Positions 1 through 25,757 of a stretch of 46,209 nt of DNA are shown here, one piece after another. The notes below the pieces were generated by a model. The model was not told where the DNA came from. It did not search any database and saw only the letters and a program-made list of their open reading frames with translations. Source of the DNA: Roseiflexaceae bacterium UBA965 (lineage in GTDB: Bacteria; Chloroflexota; Chloroflexia; Chloroflexales; Roseiflexaceae); the NCBI GenBank assembly GCA_002292925.1, contig DBCF01000015.1, positions 1 to 46,209 of the forward strand, read 5' to 3'. The position numbers and the translations under genes were made by a program. Within the stretch, counting starts at the first letter, position 1. Every line of letters starts with the position of its first letter.

Positions 1-629
1 ACGGTAGATGTGCGGGTGACGGTAGCGGTACGTGTAGGAGTTGGAGCGGTCCCCACTGCAATGGTCAGACCTTCCATCAGACTGCCTGCGGCAGGATATC
101 CCGTTGCCGTAGGCAATATATATGCGATAACACCGGTGACGTTTTGAACTACATCAGGTCCTATATTTGGCTTGTTGCCTAGGAAATAAATGCTTCTCAG
201 TGCACTTGCCCCCCCGAACGCACTATTCCCGATGGATGTAACACTTGCCGGGATGGTGATGGTAGTCAGACCTACCTCACAGAACGAACAAAAACCGATG
301 GATGTGAGTTGGCTGCCGGCTACAAAGGTGACAGAAGTGAGCGTTCTGGTACCAGAAAACGAACCCGTCTTGATTGACGTCACACTTGCCGGGATGGTAA
401 TCGCCGTGATGGCGGCACTACCGAATGCAAGATCCCCGATGGATGTGACACCTGCCGGAATCATGACAGTGCCAGTACAGGAATTATTACCGGTAACCTC
501 ATTGTCGGTTATCGTAAATGTGCCACTAATCGAACATGCCTCGGTCGTTGTTGCTGCCTGTACCACATTGCCATTCAACCCAAGCAACATAATACTAATC
601 AGAAGCATCGTTAATACTCGGTAACTCAC
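1..629 (-). CDS. Secreted BspA-like leucine-rich-repeat protein, N-terminal part (3' end lies beyond the left edge)
   Basis: Missing from the supplied track because it has no stop codon in the window. My minus-strand translation from GTG 629..627 (AAAGGAG 5 nt upstream) gives a signal-like MSYRVLTMLLISIMLLGLNGNVVQA. This is followed by repeated units IPAGVTSIGDLAF / ITIPASVTSIKTGSF / ITIPASVTSIGNSAF typical of BspA/LRR_5 repeats, then a T/P-rich tail open to position 1. The listed + ORF 190..624 is its antisense shadow. Confidence 0.8.
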   Translation of the reverse strand, partial: MSYRVLTMLLISIMLLGLNGNVVQAATTTEACSISGTFTITDNEVTGNNSCTGTVMIPAGVTSIGDLAFGSAAITAITIPASVTSIKTGSFSGTRTLTSVTFVAGSQLTSIGFCSFCEVGLTTITIPASVTSIGNSAFGGASALRSIYFLGNKPNIGPDVVQNVTGVIAYILPTATGYPAAGSLMEGLTIAVGTAPTPTRTATVTRTST

Positions 630-1120
630 TGTTTCTCCTTTACAATGATTACTATAGCTTGCTGTTCCGAGAATTAGTTTCCCCAAAATATCCCAAAATA
701 ACATTTATTATTCGAGATAAACAGTTATAATATTACACAAATTCAGATTTGTTATTTGTGTTAATTGTAAATATTATATAAATCTTGCATTTTTCAATAG
801 CAAGATTACATTCTAGAAATAATCATTTACCGGAATCGCCCAGCAACTATGAAATGCGGGCATAGCGGCGGCTCAATTATTTCGTGCATGACTACACGCT
901 TCCTCCTTCGCATACTGGTACTTAGTCATATCAATGCACCGCCACACAATCAACGAGCTGCCAAGATTAGCGTAGGTATTCTGTCTCATAAAAATAAAGC
1001 TGGTGCAATAAGAACAGTAACTGCAGAATCGTATAATGCCGTGTGATGATACGATTCCTGCGCGTCGTGGGTTTTTGTTGGTACAATTCTACTGAAATAC
1101 GAAATTTTAGGAGTTGTAAG

Positions 1121-2272
1121 ATGAGCCAAATAATATACGCCGACCACGCAGCCACCACGCCCCTCGCACCTGATGTACTTGCGGCCATGATGCCGTATCT
1201 GACGCAATATTATGGCAACGCCTCGAGTCCACATGCCATGGGGCAAGCCAGCCAAATTGCCGTCGATCGCGCCCGTGACGATGTCGCCAAAGTACTTGGC
1301 TGTACGTCGGCAGAAGTGGTGTTTACCGGCGGTGGATCCGAAGGGGACAACCTCGCCATCAAAGGGGCAGCATTGGCATACTTACAGGCACACGGCACCG
1401 CCCATGTGGTAGTGAGTGCCATCGAACACCACGCGGTGTTGCATGCTGCTGAGGCGTTGCAACGCCATGGAATCACCATGACCGTGGTGCCCGTCGATAG
1501 CACTGGGGTGGTCAGTGTGGCGGCAGTAGCGGCGGCGTTGCGCCCCGATACCGCCGTGGTGTCGGTGATGTATGCCAACAACGAAATCGGCACAATCGAG
1601 CCGATCAAAGAAATCGCGGCGTTGTGTAAATCACACCAGGTATTGTTTCATTGCGATGCAGTGCAAGCCACCGGATTGTTGCCACTCAACGTGCATGAGC
1701 TCGGCGTCGATATATTGACGATTACCGCGCATAAGTTTTATGGACCCAAAGGGGTGGGCGTGATGTATGTGCGCCGCGGCGCGGTGGTCTTCCCACAAAT
1801 CCATGGTGGCTCCCAAGAGCGCCGCCGTCGGGCTGGCACCGAAAACGTCGCGGGGATTGTAGGGCTCGCCACCGCCCTAACGCTTGCCGACGCCAAACGC
1901 GAGACAGAAGTCGCGCGGCTGACACCCCTGCGTGATGCCATGATTGCGGGCATCACGGGTGAGTTAAATGGTGTACGACTGACGGGCCACCCCACCCATC
2001 GGTTGGCCAACAATGCCAGTTTTGTCATCGATGGCATTGACGGTGACAGTTTGCTCATCATGCTCGATCAACGGGGGATTTGTGCATCGAGTGGCTCGGC
2101 CTGTACGAGTGGCTCACTCGAACCCTCACACGTGTTGTCGGCACTCGATGTGCTCGGCTCCGATTTACAGGCGGCCTTGCGTTTGACCCTCGGGCGTAGT
2201 ACCACGCACGCCGACGTTGAATTCATCGTCGCCCAAGTGGTGACTGTCGTGCAGTTATTACGTCAAGCATAA
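1121..2272 (+). CDS. Cysteine desulfurase, NifS/IscS family (class V aminotransferase)
   Basis: MSQIIYADHAATTPL... and HAMG motifs, PLP-lysine context ITAHKFYGPKG, and active-site loop SSGSACTSGSLEPSHVL. Start moved to ATG 1121 (TTAGGAG 7 nt upstream). The 26 upstream codons of track ORF 1043 have no family counterpart. Confidence 0.9.
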   Translation: MSQIIYADHAATTPLAPDVLAAMMPYLTQYYGNASSPHAMGQASQIAVDRARDDVAKVLGCTSAEVVFTGGGSEGDNLAIKGAALAYLQAHGTAHVVVSAIEHHAVLHAAEALQRHGITMTVVPVDSTGVVSVAAVAAALRPDTAVVSVMYANNEIGTIEPIKEIAALCKSHQVLFHCDAVQATGLLPLNVHELGVDILTITAHKFYGPKGVGVMYVRRGAVVFPQIHGGSQERRRRAGTENVAGIVGLATALTLADAKRETEVARLTPLRDAMIAGITGELNGVRLTGHPTHRLANNASFVIDGIDGDSLLIMLDQRGICASSGSACTSGSLEPSHVLSALDVLGSDLQAALRLTLGRSTTHADVEFIVAQVVTVVQLLRQA

Positions 2273-2361
2273 CAGTATACGACTGGATATTTTTTCTCTG
2301 TGAATTGCAGGTATACTATCAATATGAATTTGTGTTTACAAAAACAAAAGAGGAGCTGTCG

Positions 2362-2874
2362 ATGCGTAGTGTGTTGAGTCTGGCAATTCGCCGTGTGTTA
2401 GGGGTATTCGGGGTCATCCCAGCAGTGAGTGACAAAATTGATCAGATTGCTGATGCCGCAGTGGATAAGCTCGAAGAAACAATCCCGGCAGTGAAACAAA
2501 TCGATGACATGTTGGGAGCGACGTCAGAACGGAGTGCGAGTCCGGCAACAGGTTCAGCTAACGGAATCGGTGAGGCTGGTTTTAATAGTCAAGTATTGCA
2601 GTCCGATTTACCGGTATTGGTCGATTTTTGGGCGCCGTGGTGTGGTCCGTGCAAAGCAGTTTCACCAGTCCTCGAAGAGCTGGCTCAAGACTATGCAGGC
2701 AAAATCAACGTCGTCAAAATCAATATCGACGAAGATGCTGCATTATCTGACACATACAACGTGCAGTCGATTCCCACGATTGTTTTTTTCAAAAACGGGA
2801 GCGAAGTATCACGGAGCAGTGGCGTCAAAACAAAACTGCAATTCCAACGTGATATCGAAGCAGCCATCGCGTAG
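2362..2874 (+). CDS. trxA: Thioredoxin (WCGPC) with a ~65-residue N-terminal extension
   Basis: VLVDFWAPWCGPCK active site and thioredoxin fold through ...IPTIVFFKNG. ATG 2362 is preceded by AAGAGGAG. The N-terminal MRSVLSLAIRRVLGVFGVIPAV is hydrophobic/amphipathic. Confidence 0.85.
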   Translation: MRSVLSLAIRRVLGVFGVIPAVSDKIDQIADAAVDKLEETIPAVKQIDDMLGATSERSASPATGSANGIGEAGFNSQVLQSDLPVLVDFWAPWCGPCKAVSPVLEELAQDYAGKINVVKINIDEDAALSDTYNVQSIPTIVFFKNGSEVSRSSGVKTKLQFQRDIEAAIA

Positions 2875-2902
2875 GCAACACCAATAATAGCTGGCAGGCA
2901 AC

Positions 2903-2932
2903 GAGGGTGGGGCATGACAATGCCTCACCCTC
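2903..2932. terminator. Hairpin between convergent trx and yigZ (13-bp stem with one G-T pair, 4-nt loop)
   Basis: gagggtggggcat-gaca-atgcctcaccctc, followed by an A/T-rich run on the + strand. It overlaps the yigZ stop codon. Confidence 0.5.
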
Positions 2933-3527
2933 AAATTATTTCTATCTGACCAGCAGTCTGTTCGATCAGCGTGTGCTGGATCGTGCCGACATCGGCAACC
3001 CGCAAAGTCACCGTCATGGTAACATCGGCGGCGAATTGTTCGTCGTCGATGCGATGGTCGTATTGGGCGAGGGTACGTTTGACCCCGTCGTATTGGGCAT
3101 AGCTCATCACCAGCACACATTGCTGGCGGGCGATTTTTTCGACACGGGCGGTGATGAGGAGCACTTCGCGCACTGCATCACCGTAGGCATGCACGAGGCC
3201 GCCGGTACCGAGGAGCGTGCCGCCAAAATAGCGGGTAACTACCACCACCGCATCACCAAGGCCACTGCCGTTGAGTACGGCAAGGGCCGGGCGTCCTGCG
3301 GTGCCCGACGGCTCGCCGTCGTCACTCATACCGAGGGTGGTGGTGGCGCCATGCCCGATGACATAGGCATAGACATGGTGCGAAGCGTCGGGCATGGCGT
3401 GGCGGATTGACGCAATAAACGCCTTGGCCTGTACCACACTATCGACCGGCGCGAGGTGCGCAATAAACCGTGAATTGCTGGCCCTGATTTCGCACGAGGC
3501 GGCCTCAGCAGGGATAAAATTGGCCAT
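2931..3527 (-). CDS. yigZ: YigZ / IMPACT-family protein (UPF0029 plus DUF1949-like C-terminal domain)
   Basis: HHVYAYVIG...DDGEPSGTAGRPAL..L...GL.DAVVVVTRYFGGTLLGTGGLV is the conserved IMPACT-family core. Confidence 0.85.
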   Translation of the reverse strand: MANFIPAEAASCEIRASNSRFIAHLAPVDSVVQAKAFIASIRHAMPDASHHVYAYVIGHGATTTLGMSDDGEPSGTAGRPALAVLNGSGLGDAVVVVTRYFGGTLLGTGGLVHAYGDAVREVLLITARVEKIARQQCVLVMSYAQYDGVKRTLAQYDHRIDDEQFAADVTMTVTLRVADVGTIQHTLIEQTAGQIEII

Positions 3528-3548
3528 TACGGTGCCTTGGTGTACTAG

Positions 3549-5702
3549 TTATTTACGGATTATCTCGCCAGAAATCGGCAAGGTGAAACTAAATGTGCTA
3601 CCTTTGTTGACCACACTACTCGCCCACACCCGCCCCCCTTGAAGCTCGACCAGCCCTTTGACAATCGACAACCCCAGCCCGGTGCCACCGATGCTTTTGG
3701 TGTTGGAATTGTCGACGCGCATAAAGCGATCCCAGATGCGTTGCAGGTTTTCAGCGGTAATCCCGATGCCGTTGTCGCTGACACTGATACTCACAAAGCG
3801 CCCACTGGGGTGCATGTCGGGCAGTTCGGTGAGTTCACGCACACGCAACGTGATTTCACCACCGCTCGGGGAATATTTGGCGGCGTTGGTAAGCAGATTG
3901 GTGACGATTTGGCGGACACGCTCTTTGTCGGCATGCACGGGAGGCGTGTCACTGGGAATGTCGAGGGTAATGGTATGTGAATCAAAGATCGGTTGCCGTT
4001 GTAGTTGACGACTCAAGTCGGTGCAGAGCTCATGCAATGGTACGGTCCAGCGATTAATCCGCATCGTATTGGCTTCAATACGGGCAAAATCAAGCACATC
4101 GTTGACGAGATTCTCGAGATTTTCAGCTTCACGACGCAAGATTTTGAGAAAACTTTTTTGGTCTTCGGCGGGGAATTCGCGGGCCAACAACAAATCGGAG
4201 TAGCCCAAAATCGACGTTAGTGGTGTTTTGAGTTCGTGTGACACCATCGACGTAAATTCGCTTTTGAGGCGATCGGCTTCTTTTTCACGCGTCAAATCAT
4301 TAATCACCCACAAACGCCCCGTGATTTGTTCGTTGCTATCGCGGGTAGGCACCGACAGCACGTTGAGGTCTTGGTGGGGGTTACGCAATTTGAGGTTGAG
4401 CGAAAACTCTTGGTCGGGTTTGGCTTGGCCGTTGGCACAAAAATCACTAAACGCTGCCGAATCATGGAAGCGCGGTAACAGCAGACTAAGCAAATCAAAC
4501 GGCACCCGAAAGTTGGCGTTGACTTGGGCGTGGTGCAATCCCCAAATCAGCAAGAACGATGGATTATGGCGGAGCACTTGGCCATGGCGATCAATCAGCA
4601 CCAGCCCCGAAGGGATGCTGTTGAAGACCTGGCTGAGTTGGGTGCTCCGCTCGAGCATTTCTTGGTAGCGCAAAGCGCGGCGCAACGGTTGTACCGCGGC
4701 TTCAGCCACGCCCAGCGCCATGGCTGATTCGTTGTCGCCAAAGGCGTTGGCGCGAGTACTATCGAGGATGAGTACGGCTTCAGCCCGGCCATCGACAGTA
4801 ATTGGGATGGCGATTTTGGCGCGGATTTCGGGTTTGGTTTCATAAAAATAATCGACGTCTTGGGTGACTTCGCGGATGAGCAATGAGCGGGCACTGCGGG
4901 CCACTTTGCCCGCGATGCCACTTTCCCAGCTCCAGCGGTGGCGTTTGAGTTCACCACTGATGTCGGGTAGTTGGGTGACGGTATAGCCGTGGGTGGCGAC
5001 GAGCTCGATTTCTTGGCGGTCATGGTCGACATAGACGATGCTACCCGCTTCGGCACCGGTATAGTCGATCCCCCGTGACAACACCAAGGGCAACAGACTA
5101 TGGAGCGGCAACGGTGGGTCGAAGTCTTGGCGGAGCCGCGAAAGTAATTGGGCTAAGTCGAGGTGTTTACTAAACGTCAATACCGCCTGATCGTCTGGTT
5201 GAATGCCCTCATCGGGGAGCGCAGCAATGGCATGGTCGATTTCGGCAGCAAGCAACGGCGTAATCGCATCAATCGTTAGTTGGTCAGCGGGGGCCAATAG
5301 GTCGTTTTCGGCGGTACGGAATTCGAGCACGCCCCAAACGTGATTTTGCCAGCGCACGGGTATGCCATGCACGACCATCGTTTTGGCGATGACTTCGCCA
5401 TTGGTCTGCGCGATACTAATCGTCGTGGTGTGTTGGGACGGCAAGGCAGATGCCACCACCGCAGTAACGACATCATCGTCCCACGGGGCATTCCAGGTGG
5501 CATTGGTCATCACATGGAGCGGGGTTTTGTGGAGCTCGGGATCACGCCAGTAGGTCAACCGCCCATCGTGATAGCTTACCACTGCGCGCAATAACCCAAA
5601 GACTTGCTCGATGCGCGTATTAAATGGTTGTGTCGTCGCTAACGCTTTGACACATGCCGAAATTACATGGAGATGTGGTGGGGTAAGGGGAATGGTTGAC
5701 AT
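3549..5702 (-). CDS. Cytoplasmic sensor histidine kinase (GAF-GAF-PAS-HisKA-HATPase_c)
   Basis: H-box SHELKTPLTSILGYSDLL, N-box LLTNAAKYSP, and G-boxes DNGIGI and GGTGLGLSIVK. No predicted transmembrane segment. A 21-nt gap to yigZ suggests co-transcription. Confidence 0.9.
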   Translation of the reverse strand: MSTIPLTPPHLHVISACVKALATTQPFNTRIEQVFGLLRAVVSYHDGRLTYWRDPELHKTPLHVMTNATWNAPWDDDVVTAVVASALPSQHTTTISIAQTNGEVIAKTMVVHGIPVRWQNHVWGVLEFRTAENDLLAPADQLTIDAITPLLAAEIDHAIAALPDEGIQPDDQAVLTFSKHLDLAQLLSRLRQDFDPPLPLHSLLPLVLSRGIDYTGAEAGSIVYVDHDRQEIELVATHGYTVTQLPDISGELKRHRWSWESGIAGKVARSARSLLIREVTQDVDYFYETKPEIRAKIAIPITVDGRAEAVLILDSTRANAFGDNESAMALGVAEAAVQPLRRALRYQEMLERSTQLSQVFNSIPSGLVLIDRHGQVLRHNPSFLLIWGLHHAQVNANFRVPFDLLSLLLPRFHDSAAFSDFCANGQAKPDQEFSLNLKLRNPHQDLNVLSVPTRDSNEQITGRLWVINDLTREKEADRLKSEFTSMVSHELKTPLTSILGYSDLLLAREFPAEDQKSFLKILRREAENLENLVNDVLDFARIEANTMRINRWTVPLHELCTDLSRQLQRQPIFDSHTITLDIPSDTPPVHADKERVRQIVTNLLTNAAKYSPSGGEITLRVRELTELPDMHPSGRFVSISVSDNGIGITAENLQRIWDRFMRVDNSNTKSIGGTGLGLSIVKGLVELQGGRVWASSVVNKGSTFSFTLPISGEIIRK

Positions 5703-5918
5703 GATATATACTCAATTGACACTATAAATGCTGTGTAGGTGAATACATTGTAGACGGCATATTCCCGCATTGTCAACGTAGTTTATTTTATAAAAATTAC
5801 AAATTGCCGTTTGTATCATTGCTACCCCAAATGCTGGTTTGTAATGCAAGATGACAAATTCGTGAATTCTGGTACTATTAGAGATTATGAGATACAGCCG
5901 TGATTTTGGCGTTCAGAG

Positions 5919-6911
5919 GTGAGGATGATGATGAAGCGATTATTTGCAGTATTGATGGTGTTGGTGTTGACTGCGTGTGCCAGTACACCAGCTGCGCCAG
6001 AAGCGGGTACACTGAAAACTATACGGATTGGCTATGTGCCGGTGTTGATTTATGCACCATTATATGTTGGCATCGAACGCGGCTATTTTGCCGCCGAAGG
6101 TATCACCATTGAATCAACCCCCATCCAAGGTGGCAGTGATGCCGTAGTACAACTCGCCGCCGGCAACTTTGATGCCGCAATGGGTGGGGCTGGCGCAGGG
6201 TTGTTCAATGCAGCAGCCCGGGGCGTCAAGTTTTCGATTGTGGCTCCTATGCACAGCGAAAAGCCCCCCATCACCAGCCCGCTGGTAATTAGTGCGGCTC
6301 GCAAAGACGAAATCACCAAAGTTGCTGACCTCAAGGGCAAAAAAGTCGCCATCAATGCCAATGGTGCTGCCACCGAATATTGGTTGAACGAAGCACTCGG
6401 GCAAGGTGGCTTGACCATCGATGATGTCGAATTGATGACGGTACCTTTCAAAGATGTACCAGCAGCCTTGGCCAACAATTCAATCGACGCCGCCATCCTT
6501 GGCGAGCCACTGGCCACCATCGCGATGGACAAAGGTCAAGTCGCGATTTTGTCCAACAATTTCATCAATAGCTTTCATGCCACCTACCTATATATGGGTG
6601 AATCATTGTTGGCAGACCAACCCTCCGCCCAAGGCTTCATGCGGGCTTACCTCAAGGCCTGTGCCGACTTGCAGGGTGATTATATGTCACCCGAATTAGC
6701 CGCCATCATGGAAAAATATACCAAGGTGCCAGCAGATGTAGTAATGCGCGCTGCGACAGCCCAATACGATGCCACGGGCACAATCCCCGTGAATGATTTG
6801 GATGCGTTGCAACGCTACTTCCGCAAACGCGGTTTGTTGGAATACGACCAAGATCTCGATATTGCGACATTAATGAATACCGACTTGGTGGCGAGCGTCA
6901 CCGGAAAGTAG
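5919..6911 (+). CDS. ABC transporter substrate-binding lipoprotein, NMT1/THI5-like (NitT/TauT family)
   Basis: Signal peptide plus lipobox VLVLTAC, and SsuA/NMT1-like body (IRIGYVPVLIYAPLYV...). The start is ambiguous between GTG 5919 and ATG 5925/5928/5931. The GAGG at 5921-5924 favours the later ATGs. Confidence 0.85.
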   Translation: MRMMMKRLFAVLMVLVLTACASTPAAPEAGTLKTIRIGYVPVLIYAPLYVGIERGYFAAEGITIESTPIQGGSDAVVQLAAGNFDAAMGGAGAGLFNAAARGVKFSIVAPMHSEKPPITSPLVISAARKDEITKVADLKGKKVAINANGAATEYWLNEALGQGGLTIDDVELMTVPFKDVPAALANNSIDAAILGEPLATIAMDKGQVAILSNNFINSFHATYLYMGESLLADQPSAQGFMRAYLKACADLQGDYMSPELAAIMEKYTKVPADVVMRAATAQYDATGTIPVNDLDALQRYFRKRGLLEYDQDLDIATLMNTDLVASVTGK

Positions 6912-6919
6912 GCGCGGTA

Positions 6920-7696
6920 ATGGACAGCGGTGTAGTTGTCGATTTTGCGCATCTAGGGGTCACCTACGCCAATGGCGTGGTGGCCCTTTCTGACCTTTCA
7001 TTGACCATTGCCGCCGATCAAGCGGTATGCGTGGTGGGTCCGAGTGGCTGCGGCAAAACGACCTTATTGCGGGTATTGGCGGGACTCGAACGTGCCACCC
7101 AGGGTGGTGTGCAGCTTTCGCGTCCGGCCACATTGGCCATGGTATTTCAGCAAGGCTTGCTCTTTCCGTGGTTGTCGGTGGCAGAAAATATCAGCTATGG
7201 GCTAATGACTCGGGGCGCAACCCCGCCCCAATGCCGAGCAGCGGCGCGCGAATGGAGCGAGCGGATGGGGTTGCAACGCTTTATTGATGCCTACCCCCAT
7301 CAATTATCGGGGGGGATGCAACAACGGGTGGGTTTGGCACGGGCACTCGCCGTCAACCCCGATGTATTGTTGCTCGACGAACCATTTGCAGCCCTCGATG
7401 CCCAGACCCGGGTATTGATGCAAGAATTACTGGTTGATTTGCGCCGCCAAGGGTTGTGTCGCAGTTTGTTGTTGGTGACCCATGCCATCGACGAAGCGTT
7501 GTTGGTCGGCGACAGGGTGGTGGTGCTGTCGGCGCGGCCGGGGCGGATTATTGCTGACGTGACGCCGCAGGTGGCCCACAGCCAGAGTTTCGACGAAATT
7601 CGGGCACAGCCGGCCTTTATGCAGGCTTTTACGACGATTTGGCAACTCATCCGCCACGAAGTCGAAGCGCAATTGCGTGAGGAGGTCATACTATGA
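6920..7696 (+). CDS. ABC transporter ATP-binding protein (NitT/TauT family)
   Basis: Walker A GPSGCGKTT, signature LSGGMQQRV, Walker B LLLDEPF. The stop overlaps the next start (ATGA), implying translational coupling. Confidence 0.9.
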   Translation: MDSGVVVDFAHLGVTYANGVVALSDLSLTIAADQAVCVVGPSGCGKTTLLRVLAGLERATQGGVQLSRPATLAMVFQQGLLFPWLSVAENISYGLMTRGATPPQCRAAAREWSERMGLQRFIDAYPHQLSGGMQQRVGLARALAVNPDVLLLDEPFAALDAQTRVLMQELLVDLRRQGLCRSLLLVTHAIDEALLVGDRVVVLSARPGRIIADVTPQVAHSQSFDEIRAQPAFMQAFTTIWQLIRHEVEAQLREEVIL

Positions 7697-9348
7697 CCCA
7701 AAGTCGTTGGTTGACCTGGCTTTCACCGCTGCTGTTGGTGGTGTTGTGGGAAGTAGCTGTACAACTCAACCTACTCAATCGCGTATTTATCCCTCCGCCC
7801 AGCGAAGTGGTGGTAGCGCTTGTCAAAGCCGTGCGCGATGGCAGCATGCAACACGATGTGGTGGTGAGTAGCCAACGGATTGTATTGGGGTTTGTGATTG
7901 GGGCGGTACCCGGTACCCTATTGGGGATTTGGAGTGGCCTCAATCGTACGGTACTAGCACTAGTGCGCCCGTTGGCGACGATGTTGTACCCCGTGCCAAA
8001 AATCGCCTTGTTGCCGTTGGTGATTGTGGTGTTGGGCATCGGCGAAGTGAGCAAAGTGGCCACGGTAGCGGTCAGTGTTTTTTTGATGGTGGTAATCCAT
8101 ACCATCGGCGGCGTCTTGCAAATCGACCAACGCTATTTCGAGGCGGCCCGGGTGTTTGGCGCCAATCAACGCACCATATTTCGTACCGTCGCCTTGCCCG
8201 CCAGCCTGCCAGCGATTGTCGAGGGCTGGAAGCTGGCGATGGGGTTTGCCTTGACGTTGATTGTCGGTGTGGAGTTTGTCGGTGCCAATGACGGCATCGG
8301 CTACCGCATCTGGCAATCGTACGAGTTGTATGCCATTGCTGACATGATGGCGGCGGTGTGTGTGATTGCCGGCTTGGGCTGGGTAGTGACGGTAGTACTC
8401 GATGAAGTGGCGCGGCTGCTGGTGCCGTGGCGTTATACAACAGTCAAGGAGTCGCGTATGTCGGTCGTACGAACCTGGTGGGGCGCAGTGCGCCCGTGGA
8501 GCTATACCGCCGCCATTGTGCCGGTATTGTTGGGGGCTGCCATTGCCGCCCAGCAAGTAGGATTGAATTGGTGGCTGTTGATCCTCGCCTTGATTGGCTC
8601 TATCGCCATCCAAGGCGGTACCAATCTGATGAATGACTACTATGATTACCGCAAAGGCACCGATACCCCCGCCGTCAAAGGCACGGGTGGAGCGTTGCTT
8701 CGGGGTGAACTCACCCCCACCCAGATTTTTTGGGCGGGGATTAGTGCTTTTGCCATCGGTGCCGCCATCGGTCTTTATTTGGTATCGGTGACGGGACCAT
8801 TTATTTTTTGGTTAGGGTTGTGTAGCGTGGCAGTGGGTTATTTTTATACGGCGGGACCCTTTGCCTTGGCGTATGTGGGTTTGGGCGAAATCGCCGTCTT
8901 TATTTTTATGGGGCCAGTAATGGTCCTCGGCTCGTATTTCTTGCAAATCCCCACGGTGGCGTGGCCGGCAGTGTGGGTATCGTTGCCGGTGGCCTTTGTG
9001 GTGGCAGCGATTTTGCACGCCAACAATTTGCGTGACATCGATACTGACCGTATCAACAATAAACGCACCTTGGCGACGATTTTTGGGCGTGATGGTGCCC
9101 GCATCGAGTACTACCTCTTGGTGGGTGGCACCTTTGTGAGCCAGTGGGTGCTCGTGGCGCTGGGCGTGGCGCCGTGGCCGACGTTGGTGACGTTGGTGAT
9201 GCTGCCCTTGGCGTGGAAGTTGATGGGGATTGCTGGTCGCGAAGTCGACCCCGCTGCCCTACAACCCGTGTTGCGCCAAACCGCCGTATTACACATGCGC
9301 TTCGGGTTGTTGTATGTGCTGGGCTGGGTAATTGCCTTGTGGATGTGA
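7693..9348 (+). CDS. menA: In-frame fusion of an ABC transporter permease (residues ~1-246) and 1,4-dihydroxy-2-naphthoate polyprenyltransferase MenA (UbiA family, residues ~256-551)
   Basis: N-terminal half has the BPD_transp_1 signature (EAARVFGANQRTIFRTVALPASLP). C-terminal half has MenA/UbiA motifs (NLMNDYYDYRKG, HANNLRDIDTDRINNKRTLA). I re-translated the junction 8401-8470 (DEVARLLVPWRYTTVKESRMSVVRTWW) and found no stop. An internal ATG at 8458 has AAGGAG 6 nt upstream. Confidence 0.8.
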   Translation: MTQSRWLTWLSPLLLVVLWEVAVQLNLLNRVFIPPPSEVVVALVKAVRDGSMQHDVVVSSQRIVLGFVIGAVPGTLLGIWSGLNRTVLALVRPLATMLYPVPKIALLPLVIVVLGIGEVSKVATVAVSVFLMVVIHTIGGVLQIDQRYFEAARVFGANQRTIFRTVALPASLPAIVEGWKLAMGFALTLIVGVEFVGANDGIGYRIWQSYELYAIADMMAAVCVIAGLGWVVTVVLDEVARLLVPWRYTTVKESRMSVVRTWWGAVRPWSYTAAIVPVLLGAAIAAQQVGLNWWLLILALIGSIAIQGGTNLMNDYYDYRKGTDTPAVKGTGGALLRGELTPTQIFWAGISAFAIGAAIGLYLVSVTGPFIFWLGLCSVAVGYFYTAGPFALAYVGLGEIAVFIFMGPVMVLGSYFLQIPTVAWPAVWVSLPVAFVVAAILHANNLRDIDTDRINNKRTLATIFGRDGARIEYYLLVGGTFVSQWVLVALGVAPWPTLVTLVMLPLAWKLMGIAGREVDPAALQPVLRQTAVLHMRFGLLYVLGWVIALWM

Positions 9349-9381
9349 CCGATTGAATCATGATGAACAGGCAGGTATGTT

Positions 9382-10062
9382 ATGAAACAACAGCTCTTCA
9401 TTGCGGTGATCGTAATCATTTGTACGGCGTGTGGGCAGTCATCCGTACAAAACAATCCGCTGCCAACACCGGTAACGTTGACAAATACACCAGTCGAGAT
9501 TGATACACCACTTGTCACAAATACACCCGTTCCAATCTCTAATACGGTTGTGCCTGTGGCTCCAACACCACTGGTGGCAACTAGGGTTGTGGCGCCGACC
9601 GCGACATTGACGGCAACCAAAGTGGCAGCAATAACTACTAGCGGGTGGCGGTTTCGTAATAAAACACTGCCTGGTGCACAATTTGCTCATCAAGGGACAC
9701 ATTGTGCCAATGGCACAGACTTGAGTGGTGAGTGGGTAGTGACTGATGAAAAAACCATCGAGGGCGTGAAATTTACGTCACGGATTATTGTGACAGTGAA
9801 TGCGGATCAAACAAGTGGCGCATGGCGGATTGAACAGTTTTTTGTTATCGAAGGGGTGAAATCACTCGGTGGCGTACAAGGGAGTATTGCCCAAATCCGG
9901 TTGGGGAGCGATGGCGTGGTGGCGTTTGATTTGAATGTTGGCACGCCAGTCCAAGCCAAAATCATCCAACCCGATGGCAGCGAAACGCCGTTTGATTTCC
10001 CGATGCCGGTGACGAGTCTCAAACAACTGGAGTGGGAACCACTCACTGGGTCTTGTCCGTAA
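9382..10062 (+). CDS. Lipoprotein of unknown function with a T/P/V-rich linker
   Basis: MKQQLFIAVIVIICTACGQ signal with a lipobox-like Cys, about 70 residues of low-complexity TNTPV/PTP linker, then a ~130-residue beta-rich domain with two Cys. I recognise no family. Confidence 0.6.
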   Translation: MKQQLFIAVIVIICTACGQSSVQNNPLPTPVTLTNTPVEIDTPLVTNTPVPISNTVVPVAPTPLVATRVVAPTATLTATKVAAITTSGWRFRNKTLPGAQFAHQGTHCANGTDLSGEWVVTDEKTIEGVKFTSRIIVTVNADQTSGAWRIEQFFVIEGVKSLGGVQGSIAQIRLGSDGVVAFDLNVGTPVQAKIIQPDGSETPFDFPMPVTSLKQLEWEPLTGSCP

Positions 10063-10298
10063 TTACCTGCTTGGGCGCATTATTGCCATGATGAGTGTCG
10101 TGTAGGGACTATATACCCTGCACGACATTTACGTATCGTAGCCTTGGAATGACGACTGCAGAATCACCATGATTCGTTTGCAAAATATTGTTGTGATGTG
10201 AAAAACCATGTAAGATGTACTATAGAATGTGGTAATAATTGTGACGGTTGTGGGTTGGGTTAATTATGGAAAGCAGATTGTGGTAAAGGAACAAAACA

Positions 10299-11654
10299 AT
10301 GCGTGGGCGAATCATTGAATTAGCGTTCATTAGTCTGTTTTTGGTGGCATGTAGTGCCACACCATCGGCAAGTGTTGAGACCCCAAGTGTGCCAACCGTA
10401 ACCCAAAACACCGACACAACTACATCACAAGCGGCACCCGTTACTCCTGAGATTACTGAAGGTGCAACGGTAGTGACCGATGGAGCGACTCCAACCCAGT
10501 TTGTGCTGCCGACGTCAACCCCCAGCAATGCCGATGCCCCCGACGCCACCGCCTTGGCTGCCACCACGATTGCGTTGATGCCCGCTACTGCCACTCCCGA
10601 TGCGTCAGGATTGACCGCCTCACTCCAAGGTGATGTGGTGGTGGTGGCCCTTTCCAACGGCGCCGAGGGGCAGTTTTTTGCAACCATTAGCAAAGGCATG
10701 ATGGAAAACATTGATGACCCACATCCGTTGACTATCTACCAAAAAAACGGGGCTGAGTTTGTCAGTGTCACCCAGTATGACTTTACCAATGGCGAATATA
10801 TCGGCGATCTCGAGTTGTTGCCCATCCCCGACTCCAATCACATGTTATTTATTGTGCATGGTGGCGTGGGCGCGCATAGTAGTTTTGGCACGGTTTTTTC
10901 GTTTGATGGCAAAACCCTCAAATCAGAGCTCGAAACCCAATCTGATGCAGGCGGCGGGGCATTGACGGTAATGGATGTCAATGGTGACGGCGTGCAAGAT
11001 GTGATTGGTGATGCTACTGATTATTATGTGTTTTGTTATGCCTGTGGGGTGCGGATTAATTCCGATATCGTATATAGCTGGGATGGCGCCAAGTTTGTTG
11101 AGCAGACATTGACCGCCTCGAGTGATGCCACCATCCAAAAAGCGATTGATTATGCCAAAGCCCAACGCTGGAACATGGTCACCAAATCATTGCCCACCAT
11201 CAGCGCCCCAACCAACGATGCCGACAAATGGAATGTAGCGTTGTTGACGCACTGGTCGACGATTCGTATCCCCGAGACAGACGCAGCATTTCCTTTTTTG
11301 TCAGCAGTCTACTATGGTGATTATGATGCTGCCGTCGCTATGTTGCGTGCCGTCGGTGCCAAAGACGCTGCCAATCCCAAGGGCAAGTGGTTTGCGGGCC
11401 CAATTGCCGAAGGCATCGATGTAGCTACTGACACATCAATTGATGAGTTCCGTGTGATATTGTTTGATAATGTAGTACAATTTAGCACCATGGCATTGAC
11501 CCAAGATGACACAGTAACGAGTGCCCGCTTCTTACGTGGCTGGGCCAAAACACTCGTAAACCCCCGTGATCCTGAAGGATTAAAAGATTTGCAGGCAGTG
11601 GCGACTGCTGATCCGTTTTACGCCGCCGTGCGTGATGCGATTGTCAGTCGTTAG
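10299..11654 (+). CDS. Lipoprotein of unknown function (T/P/A-rich linker, FG-GAP/VCBS-like Asp-Gly motif)
   Basis: MRGRIIELAFISLFLVAC lipobox (LVAC), about 90 residues of linker, and MDVNGDGVQDVIGD calcium-binding-like motif. It ends 20 nt before glgB, whose RBS GAGGAG lies in the gap. Confidence 0.6.
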   Translation: MRGRIIELAFISLFLVACSATPSASVETPSVPTVTQNTDTTTSQAAPVTPEITEGATVVTDGATPTQFVLPTSTPSNADAPDATALAATTIALMPATATPDASGLTASLQGDVVVVALSNGAEGQFFATISKGMMENIDDPHPLTIYQKNGAEFVSVTQYDFTNGEYIGDLELLPIPDSNHMLFIVHGGVGAHSSFGTVFSFDGKTLKSELETQSDAGGGALTVMDVNGDGVQDVIGDATDYYVFCYACGVRINSDIVYSWDGAKFVEQTLTASSDATIQKAIDYAKAQRWNMVTKSLPTISAPTNDADKWNVALLTHWSTIRIPETDAAFPFLSAVYYGDYDAAVAMLRAVGAKDAANPKGKWFAGPIAEGIDVATDTSIDEFRVILFDNVVQFSTMALTQDDTVTSARFLRGWAKTLVNPRDPEGLKDLQAVATADPFYAAVRDAIVSR

Positions 11655-11674
11655 TTTGTTATTGAGGAGCATGT

Positions 11675-13579
11675 ATGCCGACACAATTGCACGGCCATAC
11701 CCTACTAAGTCAAGATGATCTCTACTTGTTCAATGAGGGTTCGCATTTTGCACTGCACGAAAAACTCGGCGCAATTTATTGTCAGCGTGACGGGGTTACG
11801 GGTGTGCATTTTGCGGTATGGGCACCAAGTGCCCGCGCCGTGCATGTGATTGGCGATTTCAATGGCTGGCAACGGGGCGTGACCACGTTGTACCCCCAAG
11901 GGGCATCTGGGCTATGGGCGAATTTCTTTGCCGATGTGCCGGTGGGGTGTTGTTATAAATACGCCATCGAAACACAATCGGGTGACTGGCTCGAAAAAGC
12001 CGACCCCTGTGCCGCAGCCGCCGAGTTTCGCCCCCAGACAGGCTCAGTTGTCACCGATTTGACCACCTATCAGTGGCACGATGAAGCCTGGATGCAATCA
12101 CGCCGTGGCTACGATGTCACCCACGCGCCAATGAGCATCTACGAGGTGCATTTGGGCTCGTGGATGCGCAACCCCGATGGTTCGTGGCTCGGCTATGCCG
12201 ATGCCGCCCGCAAATTGGCCGACTATTTGGTAGCGATGAACTACACCCACGTAGAATTGTTGCCGATCATGGAATTTCCCTACGATGGCTCGTGGGGCTA
12301 CCAGACCGTCGGTTTATATGCGCCCACCAGCCGTTTTGGCACACCCCACGACTTCATGGGGTTTGTCGATTACCTGCACCAAAAAGGTATCGGGATTATT
12401 CTCGACTGGGTGCCGTCGCATTTCGCTGTCGACGCTCATGGCCTAGCCCAATTTGATGGCACGCATTTGTATGAGCATTCTGACCCCCGGCAAGGCTATC
12501 ACCCTGACTGGGGCTGTTATATTTTTAATTATGGGCGTCACGAAGTCCGTAGCTTTTTGATTAGTAGTGCGATTTCTTGGATTGAGCGCTATCACATCGA
12601 CGGGCTGCGGGTCGATGCAGTGGCATCAATGCTCTATCTCGATTATTCCCGCAAGGCCGGCGAGTGGATTCCCAACGCCTATGGTGGTCGGGAAAATATC
12701 GACGCCATCGTGTTGTTGCGCCGCCTCAATGACCAAGTACGCCAACGCTACCCCGGGGTCACTATGATTGCCGAAGAATCGACGGCCTGGCCAATGGTGT
12801 CGCGACCAACCGATGTCGGCGGGTTGGGGTTTGCTATGAAGTGGGACATGGGCTGGATGCACGATACCTTGAAGTATCTGAGCAACGACCCTGTCCACCG
12901 CCGCTTCCACCACAACAATCTAACCTTCCGGTCGCTTTATTCGACCAGTGAGCAATTTACCTTGGCGTTATCACATGACGAGGTCGTGCACGGCAAAGGC
13001 GCCTTGCTGGCCAAAATGCCAGGTGATCGCTGGCAACAATTTGCCAATCTGCGAGCACTCTATGGCTACATGTATGCTCAGTCAGGCAAAAAACTGCTCT
13101 TTATGGGTGGCGAAATCGGCCAGTGGCGCGAATGGTCATACGAACGCGAGCTCGATTGGTTTGTGCTCGAAGACCCCATGCACCGTGGCATCAATGCCTT
13201 GGTACGTGATTTGAATCATTTGCATATTGTCGAGCCCGCCTTGCACCAGTTAGATTTTGATCCGTGGGGCTTCCATTGGATTGCCTGTGATGACGCCGAC
13301 CAGAGTGTAGTGATTGCCTTGCGCCGTGGGGGTGCCGGCGTGCGTAATGTGGCGGTGTGGTGCAACTTCACACCCGTCCCCCGCCACCATTACCGCATCG
13401 GTTTACCGCATGGTGGCGCCTGGCACGTGCTGCTCAATAGCGACGATAGCCAGTATGGCGGCAGTGGTATGCGCGCCGATATCAATGTCGAGTCGGTGCC
13501 GTGTCATGGCATGCCCTATTCGGCATTAGTCAATATGCCCCCCTTGGCTGTGGTGTTTATTGCACCAGTAGTAGAATAA
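11675..13579 (+). CDS. glgB: 1,4-alpha-glucan branching enzyme (GH13)
   Basis: Full-length GlgB architecture. GH13 conserved regions are present: GIGIILDWVPSHF, IDGLRVDAVASMLY, MIAEESTAWP, ALSHDEVVHGK. Confidence 0.95.
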   Translation: MPTQLHGHTLLSQDDLYLFNEGSHFALHEKLGAIYCQRDGVTGVHFAVWAPSARAVHVIGDFNGWQRGVTTLYPQGASGLWANFFADVPVGCCYKYAIETQSGDWLEKADPCAAAAEFRPQTGSVVTDLTTYQWHDEAWMQSRRGYDVTHAPMSIYEVHLGSWMRNPDGSWLGYADAARKLADYLVAMNYTHVELLPIMEFPYDGSWGYQTVGLYAPTSRFGTPHDFMGFVDYLHQKGIGIILDWVPSHFAVDAHGLAQFDGTHLYEHSDPRQGYHPDWGCYIFNYGRHEVRSFLISSAISWIERYHIDGLRVDAVASMLYLDYSRKAGEWIPNAYGGRENIDAIVLLRRLNDQVRQRYPGVTMIAEESTAWPMVSRPTDVGGLGFAMKWDMGWMHDTLKYLSNDPVHRRFHHNNLTFRSLYSTSEQFTLALSHDEVVHGKGALLAKMPGDRWQQFANLRALYGYMYAQSGKKLLFMGGEIGQWREWSYERELDWFVLEDPMHRGINALVRDLNHLHIVEPALHQLDFDPWGFHWIACDDADQSVVIALRRGGAGVRNVAVWCNFTPVPRHHYRIGLPHGGAWHVLLNSDDSQYGGSGMRADINVESVPCHGMPYSALVNMPPLAVVFIAPVVE

Positions 13580-13632
13580 TTCGTCTTTAATTCATCAATT
13601 CTTACCCCGTTGGGTTACCATAGGATGCGATA

Positions 13633-16038
13633 GTGACACGATTTGTCTGTGTGCATGGGCACTTTTATCAACCCCCCCGTGAAAACCCGTGGCTGGATGC
13701 GATTGATATGCAACCAAGTGCCGCACCTTACCACGATTGGAATGCTCGGATTGCCGCCGAATGCTACGCCCCTAACACGGCAGCCCGCATCCTCGATGAC
13801 CAAGGGCGCATCCAACACGTCATCAACAATTATGCCTGGATGAGTTTCAACGTAGGGCCAACGCTGATGCGCTGGCTGGCCCAAGCCGAGCCCGTCGCCT
13901 ATGCCGGTATTTTGGCTGCAGACAAAGAAGGCCAAGCACGCTTTGGCGGGCATGGACCGGCCATCGGGCAAGCCTACGGTCATATCATCATGCCGCTGGC
14001 CACGCCGCGCGACCGCCGCACCCAAGTGGCCTGGGGTGTGGCCGACTTCCGGCATCACTTTGGCCGTGATCCCGAGGGGATGTGGTTGCCAGAGGCAGCA
14101 GTTTGTACCGACTCACTCGAAGCCTTGGCCGAATACGGTGTGCGTTATACCATACTCGCCCCCCATCAAGCGGCTCGCTTTCGCCCACTCGGCGAAGATG
14201 CATGGCAAGAAGCCGCAGATGTGGGGATTGATACAACCGTTCCGTATCGTGTGAATCTCCCTTCGGGTCGCCAAATTGCAGTTTTTTTCTACAATGGGTC
14301 GGTATCACAATCTATTGCCTTCCAAGGATTGCTCAATAGTGGCGAAGCGTTGGCACAAGCTTTGTTGGGAAATGTCCCCGCCGATGCAACCACTCCCCTA
14401 TTGGCACATGTCGCAACAGATGGTGAAACGTACGGCCATCACCATCGCCATGGCGAAATGGCCTTGGCCTACGCCTTGCACCACCTCCACGACACCGGTC
14501 TCGCTCGGATTACCGTGTATGGTGAGTTTCTGGCGTTATGCCCACCTCAACACGAAGTACAAATCGTCGAGCAAAGCTCGTGGAGTTGTGCCCACGGCGT
14601 CGAACGTTGGCGTAGTGACTGTGGCTGTCATACGGGGGGCGCATTGGGCTGGAATCAAGCCTGGCGTGGACCGCTGCGTCTAGCCCTCGAATGGGCCCGC
14701 ACAGAAGTTGATGCTCAATGGAAAAAAACCGCCGCTCGGGTCTTTGCTAACCCGTGGCAAGCCCGTGATGCCTATATCGACATCATTAATGACCCGAGCG
14801 ACGCCACGGTCAAGCGGTTTTTGACCAAATACGCCCGCGACAATCAGCGTTGGCCTGCCCTAGCACTACTCGAGCTCCAACGCCAGTTGATGCAGAGCTT
14901 TACCAGCTGTGCGTGGTTTTTTAATGACCCTAGTGGCATCGAAACCATTCAAGTGTTGCGTTATGCGGCTCGCATGATGCAGCTCGCCAAACAGACCTTG
15001 CAACTCGACCTCGAAGAAGGCTTCCATGAGCAACTCGAGCAGGTGGTGAGCAATACGGGCGTCACGGTGGCAGAGCTCTATACCGAACAAGTCCAGCCAT
15101 TAACGATTACTTTGGCTGATATTTGTGCCCACGATGCCTTGACAGCCTTGTTTATTGACACTCCGCCGGCCGATGTGGTCTATTTGCATCATGTCACCCG
15201 CCAAAAACAACAACGTTGGACAATCGATCAAGTGCAGGTGGTGATTGGTGTATCAGATGTGACGTCGTTGTTGACGGGTGAGCAAGCCCAATTTGTCTAT
15301 GGCGTAGTATTAATGGGTGAGCAAGTATTGGCAGGTGGGGTGCGCCCTGAACCAAATCGCTATCAGCGTCTACTCAACAATATTGTTGATGCCATCAAAA
15401 ACCATGACCAAGATGCAATGCTCCAAGCCATGCATAGTGAGCTCGGGCGCTTTGATTATTCGTTGCGCTCGATTTTCCGTGATGAGCAACGCACGATTTT
15501 GACTAGCATGTTGCATAGTGTGGTTGATAGTGTAGCGCAACAATACCATCAAATGTATACCCAACATGCGAATTTGATGCGGTTTCTACAACAGATGAAC
15601 TTGCCGTTACCTCCCGAATTACAAATGCCCGCTGCCATGGCCGTGCATGCCGATATTCGGGCAGCGTTGCGCCAAATACCCATCGATACGGCGCAATTAC
15701 GCCAAGTATTGCAAGCCGCCACGCAATCGGGTGTGATACTCGACAAATCCGTATTGGCCTATGAATACACCCAAACACTCCATCAACTCGCTGCCCAATT
15801 GGTCACAACGCCATGCCATCCTGAGTTAATCCGTACGATGATTGATTTGGTTGAAGTCGCTCAAGGAATTGATGTGGACATGTGGATGGTGCAAAACAAC
15901 TATAATGTGGTATGGCAACGTGATTATGATTTGATGTGTCGGTCTGCCACGCAAGGCAATGTAGAATCAACCACGTGGGTGGCTGAATTTCGCAAGTTGG
16001 GGAGTCAACTCAACATGGCCATCGTTGCGACTGAGTAA
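13633..16038 (+). CDS. Glycoside hydrolase family 57 protein with DUF3536-type C-terminal region
   Basis: N-terminus FVCVHGHFYQPPRENPW is the GH57 hallmark. The protein is ~800 aa with a long helical C-terminal half. The start is GTG as given in the track. Confidence 0.8.
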   Translation: MTRFVCVHGHFYQPPRENPWLDAIDMQPSAAPYHDWNARIAAECYAPNTAARILDDQGRIQHVINNYAWMSFNVGPTLMRWLAQAEPVAYAGILAADKEGQARFGGHGPAIGQAYGHIIMPLATPRDRRTQVAWGVADFRHHFGRDPEGMWLPEAAVCTDSLEALAEYGVRYTILAPHQAARFRPLGEDAWQEAADVGIDTTVPYRVNLPSGRQIAVFFYNGSVSQSIAFQGLLNSGEALAQALLGNVPADATTPLLAHVATDGETYGHHHRHGEMALAYALHHLHDTGLARITVYGEFLALCPPQHEVQIVEQSSWSCAHGVERWRSDCGCHTGGALGWNQAWRGPLRLALEWARTEVDAQWKKTAARVFANPWQARDAYIDIINDPSDATVKRFLTKYARDNQRWPALALLELQRQLMQSFTSCAWFFNDPSGIETIQVLRYAARMMQLAKQTLQLDLEEGFHEQLEQVVSNTGVTVAELYTEQVQPLTITLADICAHDALTALFIDTPPADVVYLHHVTRQKQQRWTIDQVQVVIGVSDVTSLLTGEQAQFVYGVVLMGEQVLAGGVRPEPNRYQRLLNNIVDAIKNHDQDAMLQAMHSELGRFDYSLRSIFRDEQRTILTSMLHSVVDSVAQQYHQMYTQHANLMRFLQQMNLPLPPELQMPAAMAVHADIRAALRQIPIDTAQLRQVLQAATQSGVILDKSVLAYEYTQTLHQLAAQLVTTPCHPELIRTMIDLVEVAQGIDVDMWMVQNNYNVVWQRDYDLMCRSATQGNVESTTWVAEFRKLGSQLNMAIVATE

Positions 16039-16139
16039 TTGTTTGTGTGAAAATCAGGCCCGTGGCGCGATCTTCCTGCGTTGCGGTGGCTGATGTTCGG
16101 TGATGTTGAATGCAGTAATCAGCAAAGAAAGGCTGTGCG

Positions 16140-25708: not shown

Positions 25709-25757
25709 GACATCCCTCGTTATTCAGTACGTCAGGTGCGCGTGCGACACCAACAAA

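Follow-up and report, generated by a model that had tools for sequence, protein, structure and literature searches.

MenA is a membrane prenyltransferase of the UbiA superfamily, and 1,4-dihydroxy-2-naphthoate (DHNA) is, to our knowledge of the established biochemistry of the family, the sole aromatic substrate known for it. ATP-binding cassette (ABC) importers of the NitT/TauT type, such as SsuABC, TauABC and NrtABCD/CmpABCD (cryo-electron microscopy structures 8wm8 and 9ua0), combine a substrate-binding protein (SBP) with a single permease and an ATPase. The subject here is a gene in which an importer permease and MenA are joined. It lies in the window, the whole stretch of 46,209 nucleotides that was analysed (contig DBCF01000015.1, positions 1 to 46,209, assembly GCA_002292925.1, Roseiflexaceae bacterium UBA965, a freshwater member of the Chloroflexota), and encodes in one open reading frame (ORF) a permease followed by MenA, directly downstream of the genes for an SBP and an ATPase. 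Both halves belong to known families, and their conserved pairing, fused or coupled, appears to be undescribed. The reading favoured here, held tentatively and with somewhat less than even confidence, is that uptake of DHNA or a close analogue is coupled to its immediate prenylation and supplements de novo synthesis.

Compared with these families, the MenA half (residues 263-551) has the nine-helix UbiA fold of MenA (TIGR00751) and UBIAD1 (PDB 8djk), both Asp-rich motifs and 25 of 27 family-wide positions. Unlike the described enzymes, this domain, known here by sequence, is joined to an ABC permease and falls in a clade apart from the housekeeping MenA of the Roseiflexus/Kouleothrix type. The importer shares with the NitT/TauT systems the set of SBP, single permease and ATPase, the EAA loop and an NMT1/SsuA-fold lipoprotein, whereas its components lie under all substrate-subfamily cutoffs and its permease is fused or coupled to a biosynthetic enzyme.

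Group translocation, or vectorial metabolism, is represented by the sugar phosphotransferase system, the vectorial acylation of FadL/FadD and PnuC with NadR. These systems resemble the present one in concept, in that a solute is trapped chemically by an enzyme at the cytoplasmic exit of a transporter, but their transporters are not of the ABC class and their partners are non-covalent.

Bacteria with only menA and ubiE left are cross-fed by DHNA that others secrete (PMC9704088). The compound is growth-inhibitory just above physiological levels (PMC12421875), and its uptake pathways are described as 'yet to be identified' (PMC10746273). In the cross-fed bacteria (Porphyromonas pasteri and relatives, PMC9704088; Lactiplantibacillus plantarum, PMC10746273) exogenous DHNA is prenylated by MenA, as is proposed here. 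Those organisms lack the early men genes, all of which are present at one locus of the present family (L001), and here MenA is tied to an importer. A literature search found no description of a permease-MenA fusion or a DHNA ABC importer, nor of any ABC importer fused to a membrane prenyltransferase, which agrees with the preliminary description of this DNA, whose author knew of no dedicated ABC importer fused to MenA.

PqqT of Methylorubrum extorquens (PDB 9b1u) is a nanomolar periplasmic binder of pyrroloquinoline quinone (PQQ) proposed to act in PQQ uptake (PMC11331073). It is a precedent for cofactor salvage and has the same fold as the window's SBP (TMq 0.62-0.63); its binding of PQQ means that this fold can take an aromatic polycarboxylate quinone cofactor. 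The two proteins differ in that they are only about 19% identical with no sign of shared ligand contacts, and in that no enzyme is fused to the PqqT transporter. Kinship with PqqT is at the level of fold only (19% identity, phmmer E 0.002-0.003).

Architecture and reality of the fused gene

The operon and the parts of the fusion protein are as follows.

5919-6911, + strand: SBP gene, 330 amino acids, with the lipobox Cys20 codon at 5976-5978
6920-7696, + strand: ABC ATPase gene, TauB/SsuB-like, 258 amino acids (Pfam ABC_tran, E 5e-31)
7679-7685 and 7693-7696, + strand: GAGGAGG Shine-Dalgarno (SD) sequence and ATGA stop/start overlap, read directly in the sequence, which couple the ATPase gene to the fusion gene
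7693-9348, + strand: permease::MenA fusion ORF, ATG start, 551 codons (ORF list, Pfam, NCBIfam)
7693-8430, + strand: permease domain, residues 1-246, six transmembrane helices, NitT/TauT-family type I transmembrane domain ending at the invariant Pro245-Trp246
8128-8211, + strand: EAA or coupling-helix loop, residues 146-173, cytoplasmic, FEAARVFGANQRTIFRTVALP; G156, A157 and P169 invariant
8431-8478, + strand: basic flexible linker, residues 247-262, cytoplasmic (hydropathy, AlphaFold pLDDT)
8446-8460, + strand: in-frame AAGGAG-N6-ATG (Lys252-Glu253 ... Met256) at the start of the MenA half (sequence reading)
8479-9345, + strand: MenA domain, residues 263-551, nine transmembrane helices, UbiA superfamily (TIGR00751, phmmer, Foldseek)
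8632-8649, + strand: first Asp-rich motif NDYYDY, residues 314-319, cytoplasmic loop; N314 and D318 invariant, D315 invariant or nearly so
9031-9048, + strand: second Asp-rich motif RDIDTD, residues 447-452, cytoplasmic loop; R447, D448 and D452 invariant

The tight operon of the preliminary description, with an ATGA overlap leading into the permease, can be read in the sequence, where the SBP and ATPase genes are separated by 8 nt. Pfam and NCBIfam likewise bear out its claim that the 551 codons hold a complete NitT/TauT-type permease and a complete MenA, with BPD_transp_1 at residues 74-245 (E 3e-25) and UbiA at residues 275-510 (E 4e-36). The system is an ABC importer by its parts, since BPD_transp_1 with an EAA loop, a cognate ATPase and an NMT1/SsuA-fold SBP stand in one operon.

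An origin of the fusion in faulty sequencing, assembly or gene calling deserves practically no weight and is effectively refuted. Logan contigs span the junction in four independent metagenomes, from lakes and rivers, with zero indels in 7600-9400 and with no listed substitution between 8344 and 8747, and a protein identical to the window's fusion is encoded in NCBI assembly GCA_003670795.1. A stop codon at the junction, the outcome that the preliminary description had named as telling against it, is absent from the independent metagenome contigs. Fused homologues number in the hundreds, both Pfam domains are found in one protein in 120 of the 120 best database matches (98 to 61% identity), and no point in favour of an artefact was found. 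The named sources of these matches are metagenome-assembled genomes (MAGs) of Chloroflexota, Roseiflexaceae, Chloroflexaceae or Chloroflexia. Their sole annotation is '1,4-dihydroxy-2-naphthoate octaprenyltransferase', which ignores the permease half of the protein. Four metatranscriptome runs, from lake, estuary and freshwater samples, yield contigs over the SBP gene, the MenA region and a stretch of the ATPase gene, so the operon is transcribed in nature, with the caveat of DNA carry-over.

The conserved unit ends at the fusion stop, since contigs from three other metagenomes part from the window sequence directly after position 9348, the content further 3′ differing between populations. The gene had been described as the last of its operon, which holds for the conserved unit and less clearly for the window itself, where a same-strand ORF (9382-10062) begins 33 nt 3′ of the stop.

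Spread and history of the pairing

The distribution was established by a scan of one genome per species and an additional scan of metagenomes, adjacency being a permease followed by MenA within 250 nt. The species scan recovered contiguous permease and MenA in 40 loci (L004-L043) plus L083, all from uncultured organisms, assigned to Roseiflexaceae, Chloroflexaceae, other Chloroflexia, Thermomicrobiales, Caldilineaceae, Litorilinea, Anaerolineales and CSP1-3. At the species level the pair is fused in 37 genomes (Chloroflexia and Anaerolineae) and forms a split operon in four. The metagenome scan added some 50 further loci, for a total of 100 loci with 90 distinct junction sequences, about 78 of which are a single ORF. 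A database search for the permease-UbiA architecture, which the preliminary description had called for, yields about 78 distinct fused junctions. Proteins of roughly 520-550 residues that match in two stretches in the representative search were set aside as permease-permease duplications.

A frame check finds separate permease and menA genes in 12 of the 100 loci. In six of them (L150, L151, L155, L156, L159 and L083) the permease ends in …LPWR(A/P/R)* and the menA GTG overlaps its stop codon as GTGA; in L153, L161 and L162 the gap is of a few nucleotides, and in L040-L042 a spacer of about 20 nt carries an SD sequence ahead of the menA GTG. A four-gene operon of SBP, ATPase, permease and menA therefore exists, of which the window's gene is a stop-loss fusion of the last two. 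The unfused permeases stop 2-3 residues past the invariant Pro-Trp that marks the exact start of the linker in the fusions. Had the orthologues always been separate genes, the proposal of coupling would have lost its ground; they are mostly fused, and the split ones are themselves translationally coupled.

Adjacency of permease and menA, coupled or fused, persists down to 38-50% identity. In a neighbour-joining (NJ) tree of permeases the split L040-L042 have the fused L139 as their sister, and L051, which has the transporter only, is nested within a fused clade. Fusion, fission and loss have thus each occurred at least twice without ending the partnership. The split coupled loci and the alternation of fused and split forms within one clade show the partnership to be old and selected. 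This evidence strengthens the proposal, made in the preliminary description, that uptake is physically coupled to prenylation.

Four loci have the transporter and no MenA (L051, L158, L166 and L167). In L051 (8133-10843) homology of the permease stops after PWQ and gives way to an unrelated tail of 35 residues, as if the MenA half had been lost; upstream are genes resembling EgtB/EgtD (ergothioneine). The permeases of the other three end in …LPWR(V/A)S*; the one neighbour they share, a convergent gene for an HGSNAT-like membrane protein, is uninformative about the substrate.

The partners upstream were surveyed in 60 distinct loci with at least 2.6 kb of upstream DNA. Directly upstream of the pair lie SBP and ATPase in 50 loci, the ATPase only in two, and neither in eight, which form one Anaerolineae-type subclade (L018, L021, L022, L027, L123, L126, L129 and L133) whose SBP and ATPase may be elsewhere in the genome or lost. 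In L018 the fusion is preceded by a GAF-PAS histidine kinase and a 338-residue protein without a Pfam match; the kinase of L018/L021 is only about 25% identical to one found in the window and is probably not its orthologue. When the ORFs flanking the first 44 loci were clustered without bias, SBP, ATPase and permease::MenA alone recurred, and no sulfur- or nitrogen-assimilation genes did. Approached from the other side, three SBP orthologues chosen independently of the fusion, one of them from a Herpetosiphonaceae MAG, are each followed by a fusion of 559-560 residues.

The MenA half

The MenA half scores 162-164 bits on TIGR00751 (menA) against a cutoff of 102, over residues 267-544. Its best solved match by sequence as well as fold is the animal homologue UBIAD1 (8djk), with a phmmer E value of 1.8e-28, and Foldseek aligns it with UBIAD1 (TMt 0.76) and ApUbiA (TMt 0.73). 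N314, D318, D448 and D452 are invariant in 36 fusions. Conservation among 93 stand-alone representatives of MenA is 85% or more at 27 positions. Of these, 25 are retained, each in 11 or more of the 12 fused domains, and no more than two positions are specific to the fusions. There is thus no sign of an altered active site, and the MenA half looks like a working, unmodified enzyme.

The narrower NCBIfam equivalogs are missed by the window's domain (NF004751, 232 bits against 264; NF004749, 231 against 277), and fused domains score 232-242 bits on the NF004751-type model, as a clade separate from canonical MenA. In an NJ tree of MenA an exclusive clade holds 11 of the 12 sampled fused domains. 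In the split loci L153-L156 and L162, and in L138, the partner MenA is nearer to the canonical type than to the window's domain.

These features bear on the possibility that uptake is coupled to prenylation of another aromatic compound (homogentisate, 4-hydroxybenzoate, another hydroxynaphthoate or a naphthoquinone such as menadiol), giving a second prenylquinone or a prenylated aromatic. The separate clade below the equivalog cutoffs would suit such a role, as would the coexistence in L001 of a fused MenA with a stand-alone one that passes the same model (350 bits against 264). A bona fide 4-hydroxyphenylpyruvate dioxygenase (HPPD), which forms homogentisate, and an FAA-hydrolase-family gene flank the operon in L094 (9621-11792), and the same FAA-hydrolase type, with an alpha/beta hydrolase, directly precedes the SBP gene in L084 (5891-7709). 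Such neighbours occur in just 1-2 of about 100 loci, the MenA-wide positions are kept with no sign of a changed active site, and the partner MenA in L153-L156 and L162 is nearer the canonical type. On balance this alternative is quite improbable. The homogentisate lead was rejected, its HPPD, FAA-hydrolase and UbiE-like neighbours being confined to L094, L084 and L095; the last of these has a UbiE/MenG-like methyltransferase (90-740) at 142 bits against a cutoff of 158.

A different MenA architecture occurs among the 50%-cluster representatives (P0150, P0160, P0191, P0204, P0206, P0209, P0213 and P0222). MenA proteins of the P0150 type have 435-473 residues with the MenA match starting at residue 133-175, and P0150 itself has an N-terminal Cupin_2 domain.

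The permease half, the linker and an internal start

The permease falls below every NCBIfam cutoff for its type (SaoP 127 against 295, SsuC 117 against 347, TauC 106 against 342 and NtrB 86 against 209). It matches CmpB (1.6e-17) and NrtB (4.5e-16) by phmmer and CmpB by Foldseek (TMt 0.84), and by analogy with NrtB/CmpB it is presumably a homodimer. Hydropathy gives six transmembrane helices for the permease and nine for MenA and places the N-terminus, the EAA loop, the linker and both Asp-rich loops in the cytoplasm. Together with the match of the halves to the CmpB/NrtB and UBIAD1 folds, this sustains the earlier expectation that the permease C-terminus and the MenA N-terminus are both cytoplasmic.

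The region of residues 245-270 has five Lys/Arg, and the linker varies from about 12 to 40 residues across lineages. An AlphaFold model built from 36 fusions has both halves well folded (mean pLDDT 83) with a pTM of 0.54 and a pLDDT below 50 at residues 250-256. The disordered linker and this pTM mean that no rigid inter-domain interface is predicted. Either arrangement, a 1:1 tether or translational coupling, would suit a complex of fixed stoichiometry.

The in-frame AAGGAG-N6-ATG that opens the MenA half could be left over from an ancestral menA start and ribosome-binding site, or could be a live internal start. If live, the ORF of the window's clade might mainly yield two proteins through restart at Met256, the 60-kDa product being minor, an arrangement compatible with the other readings. 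Most loci of the Chloroflexia clade (the window, L001, L004-L009 and L012) retain an SD-like motif with ATG or GTG here, and it matches the SD and GTG of menA at the equivalent position in the split L040-L042. Ala replaces the start residue in L020 and L084, however, and the deeper fusions all lack a start there and keep the fusion; AAG-GAG may simply encode a conserved Lys-Glu, and none of the roughly 78 distinct fused junctions has reacquired a stop codon. A predominantly two-protein output is rated very unlikely.

The substrate-binding protein and the cargo

The SBP has Pfam NMT1_2 and NMT1 domains and the lipobox LVLTAC, with Cys20 invariant in 40 homologues. Among NCBIfam models SsuA_fam fits it best, with 103 bits where 163.5 are required; the taurine model gives 41 against 304 and SaoX 27 against 300. 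The ATPase matches the taurine, PhnT2 and SaoA models, all below cutoff. None of the components reaches the curated NCBIfam cutoffs of the SsuABC, TauABC, NrtABC/CmpABC, SaoXPA, urea or phosphonate subfamilies. By sequence the matches of the SBP in the PDB are weak and generic (best 3qsl, E 7.5e-11). The 120 best matches of its family are 55-92% identical and carry only generic NitT/TauT names. It is a distinct subfamily of the NMT1/SsuA-like fold as judged from sequence comparison.

The AlphaFold2 model of the SBP (pLDDT 89.7) has as Foldseek neighbours SsuA, TauA, ThiY, Thi5, NrtA/CmpA and PqqT at 14-21% identity, a level at which specificity is not transferable. A ThiXYZ-type importer of hydroxymethylpyrimidine (HMP) finds no support, as the leader has no thiamine pyrophosphate riboswitch and ThiY (3ix1) is only 17% identical; in Rfam no family reaches its gathering score in the window, and none matches the leader (5600-6000) even when E values up to 5 are allowed. 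The preliminary description had conceded that clustering of the SBP with known sulfonate, nitrate or HMP binders would count against it; no curated sulfonate, taurine, nitrate, urea or HMP cutoff is reached.

The cargo is thus approached through the partner. Because the obligatory partner is an orthodox MenA, whose known aromatic substrate is DHNA, we infer DHNA or a relative as the solute. Tandem SBP paralogues precede one ATPase and permease in L035 (three, 5693-8701) and L142 (two, 4610-6685), which suggests several related ligands in some lineages.

The cargo might instead be an ordinary NitT/TauT nutrient (sulfonate, nitrate, HMP or similar), MenA being a long-standing neighbour and the fusion neutral or serving only co-expression or membrane co-insertion. 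The best sub-threshold families (SsuA_fam, SsuC, TauC and TauB) point this way, as do the four transporter-only loci, the flexible linker with no predicted interface, the internal SD and ATG that could release MenA from the permease, and the near-absence of men genes next to the system. Against this stand the coupled or fused adjacency down to 38-50% identity with repeated fusion or fission, the exclusive clade of fused MenA domains, the constant company of fusion and independently sampled SBP orthologues, the lack of recurring sulfur- or nitrogen-assimilation neighbours and the failure of the SBP at every curated cutoff. An unrelated cargo is rated unlikely, though by no means negligible.

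Relation to menaquinone synthesis

In one locus the system adjoins genes for menaquinone synthesis. L001, on a contig of 11.3 Mb, has a fusion 62% identical to the window's, and its transporter operon directly follows men genes on the same strand. The order over 1-11677 is menD-menH-menB-menA-menC-(PhdYeFM antitoxin gene)-menE and then SBP-ATPase-permease::MenA, and this adjoining men operon supports a functional tie to menaquinone. MenD, MenH, MenB and MenE are above their curated cutoffs and MenC is at its cutoff. The stand-alone MenA, which passes NF004751, is an orthologue of Roseiflexus castenholzii and Kouleothrix MenA at 69-76% identity. L001 thus has two MenA paralogues at one locus, and the antitoxin-like gene sits within its men operon.

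The full men set means that at least the L001 carrier is not a DHNA auxotroph. The preliminary description had proposed a salvage route and pointed to cross-feeding of organisms that keep only menA; salvage of that kind is not supported. L001, the sole fusion-bearing genome in which men genes are visible, has the full pathway, one of the outcomes that the description had named as telling against it, and for that relative this contradicts the idea of an auxotroph. The juxtaposition in L001 is lineage-specific, since in a relative (L093, MenA 77% identical) the men operon ends at menE with no transporter after it. A tblastn search of about 175 loci with MenF/D/H/B/C/E probes found men genes beside the system in L001 alone, a single case among some 90 distinct loci, and the window's 46 kb contains no men or mqn genes. 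Contigs with canonical MenA were not matched to fusion-bearing MAGs, on grounds of GC content or assembly identity; the assemblies of P0437, P0420, P0472, P0494 and P0411 have 61-72% GC compared with 52% in the window and 59.5% in L007.

Proposed mechanism

In the proposed mechanism the surface lipoprotein SBP would capture an extracellular aromatic-carboxylate quinone head group, DHNA or a very close analogue, and the ATPase-driven permease would bring it to the inner face of the membrane. There the tethered MenA, with its active site in the cytoplasm, would prenylate it at once to demethylmenaquinone. Such coupling would trap a scarce, redox-reactive and toxic solute with no free build-up in the cytoplasm. 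The system would add to de novo menaquinone synthesis and would not replace it. The fusion itself would have arisen when the permease gene of an older operon of four genes lost its stop codon, permease and menA being translationally coupled there already. What the sequences show is the architecture, its conservation whether fused or split, the intact catalytic motifs, a topology that fits and transcription in situ; the cargo, its hand-over to MenA and the role in physiology are inferred from these.

Several observations weigh against this coupled uptake and prenylation of DHNA. The fused MenA misses the specific NCBIfam MenA equivalogs. The best, sub-threshold family of the SBP is SsuA_fam, its solved neighbours are just 14-21% identical, and support for the ligand is indirect. 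With its canonical MenA and complete DHNA pathway, L001 shows no evident need for salvage, and it alone among the distinct loci has men genes nearby. The AlphaFold monomer has no confident inter-domain packing, eight of the 60 surveyed loci have no nearby SBP or ATPase, four loci have the transporter without MenA, and every dataset comes from uncultured organisms.

Surroundings of the operon

On the minus strand of the window (3549-5702) a GAF-PAS histidine kinase gene diverges from the operon across an AT-rich spacer of 216 nt. This position is kept across the window's clade (L005, L006, L099, L102, L103, L105, L106 and L130) and not outside it, and the kinase is a possible regulator of the operon. 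On the 3′ side (9382-11654) lie ORFs of 226 and 451 residues, lipoprotein-like and without Pfam families, the larger of which recurs in L004 and L006. Genes for a glycogen-branching enzyme, a GH57/DUF3536 protein and malate synthase (11675-17699) and two tandem ABC exporter genes on the minus strand (23915-27509) have no evident link to the fusion.

Meaning for the family

In guts, sediments, food fermentations and the oral cavity, DHNA and related naphthoquinones pass from one microbe to another. The module is the best candidate available, and a concrete and cloneable one, for the step by which DHNA enters the cell, for which the cited papers name no transporter. That it is the first dedicated importer of a menaquinone head-group precursor, an ABC importer with MenA at its exit that turns external DHNA into membrane-bound demethylmenaquinone on entry, as a form of group translocation, and that is conserved, fused or coupled, across the Chloroflexota, is a larger claim that remains doubtful, though it has a real chance of being correct. 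If true, it would offer a natural example, one of few, of an ABC importer wired directly to a biosynthetic enzyme embedded in the membrane, with relevance to substrate channelling and to the engineering of vitamin K2 production. If the cargo is unrelated, the locus still documents the repeated fusion and fission of a transporter-enzyme pair.

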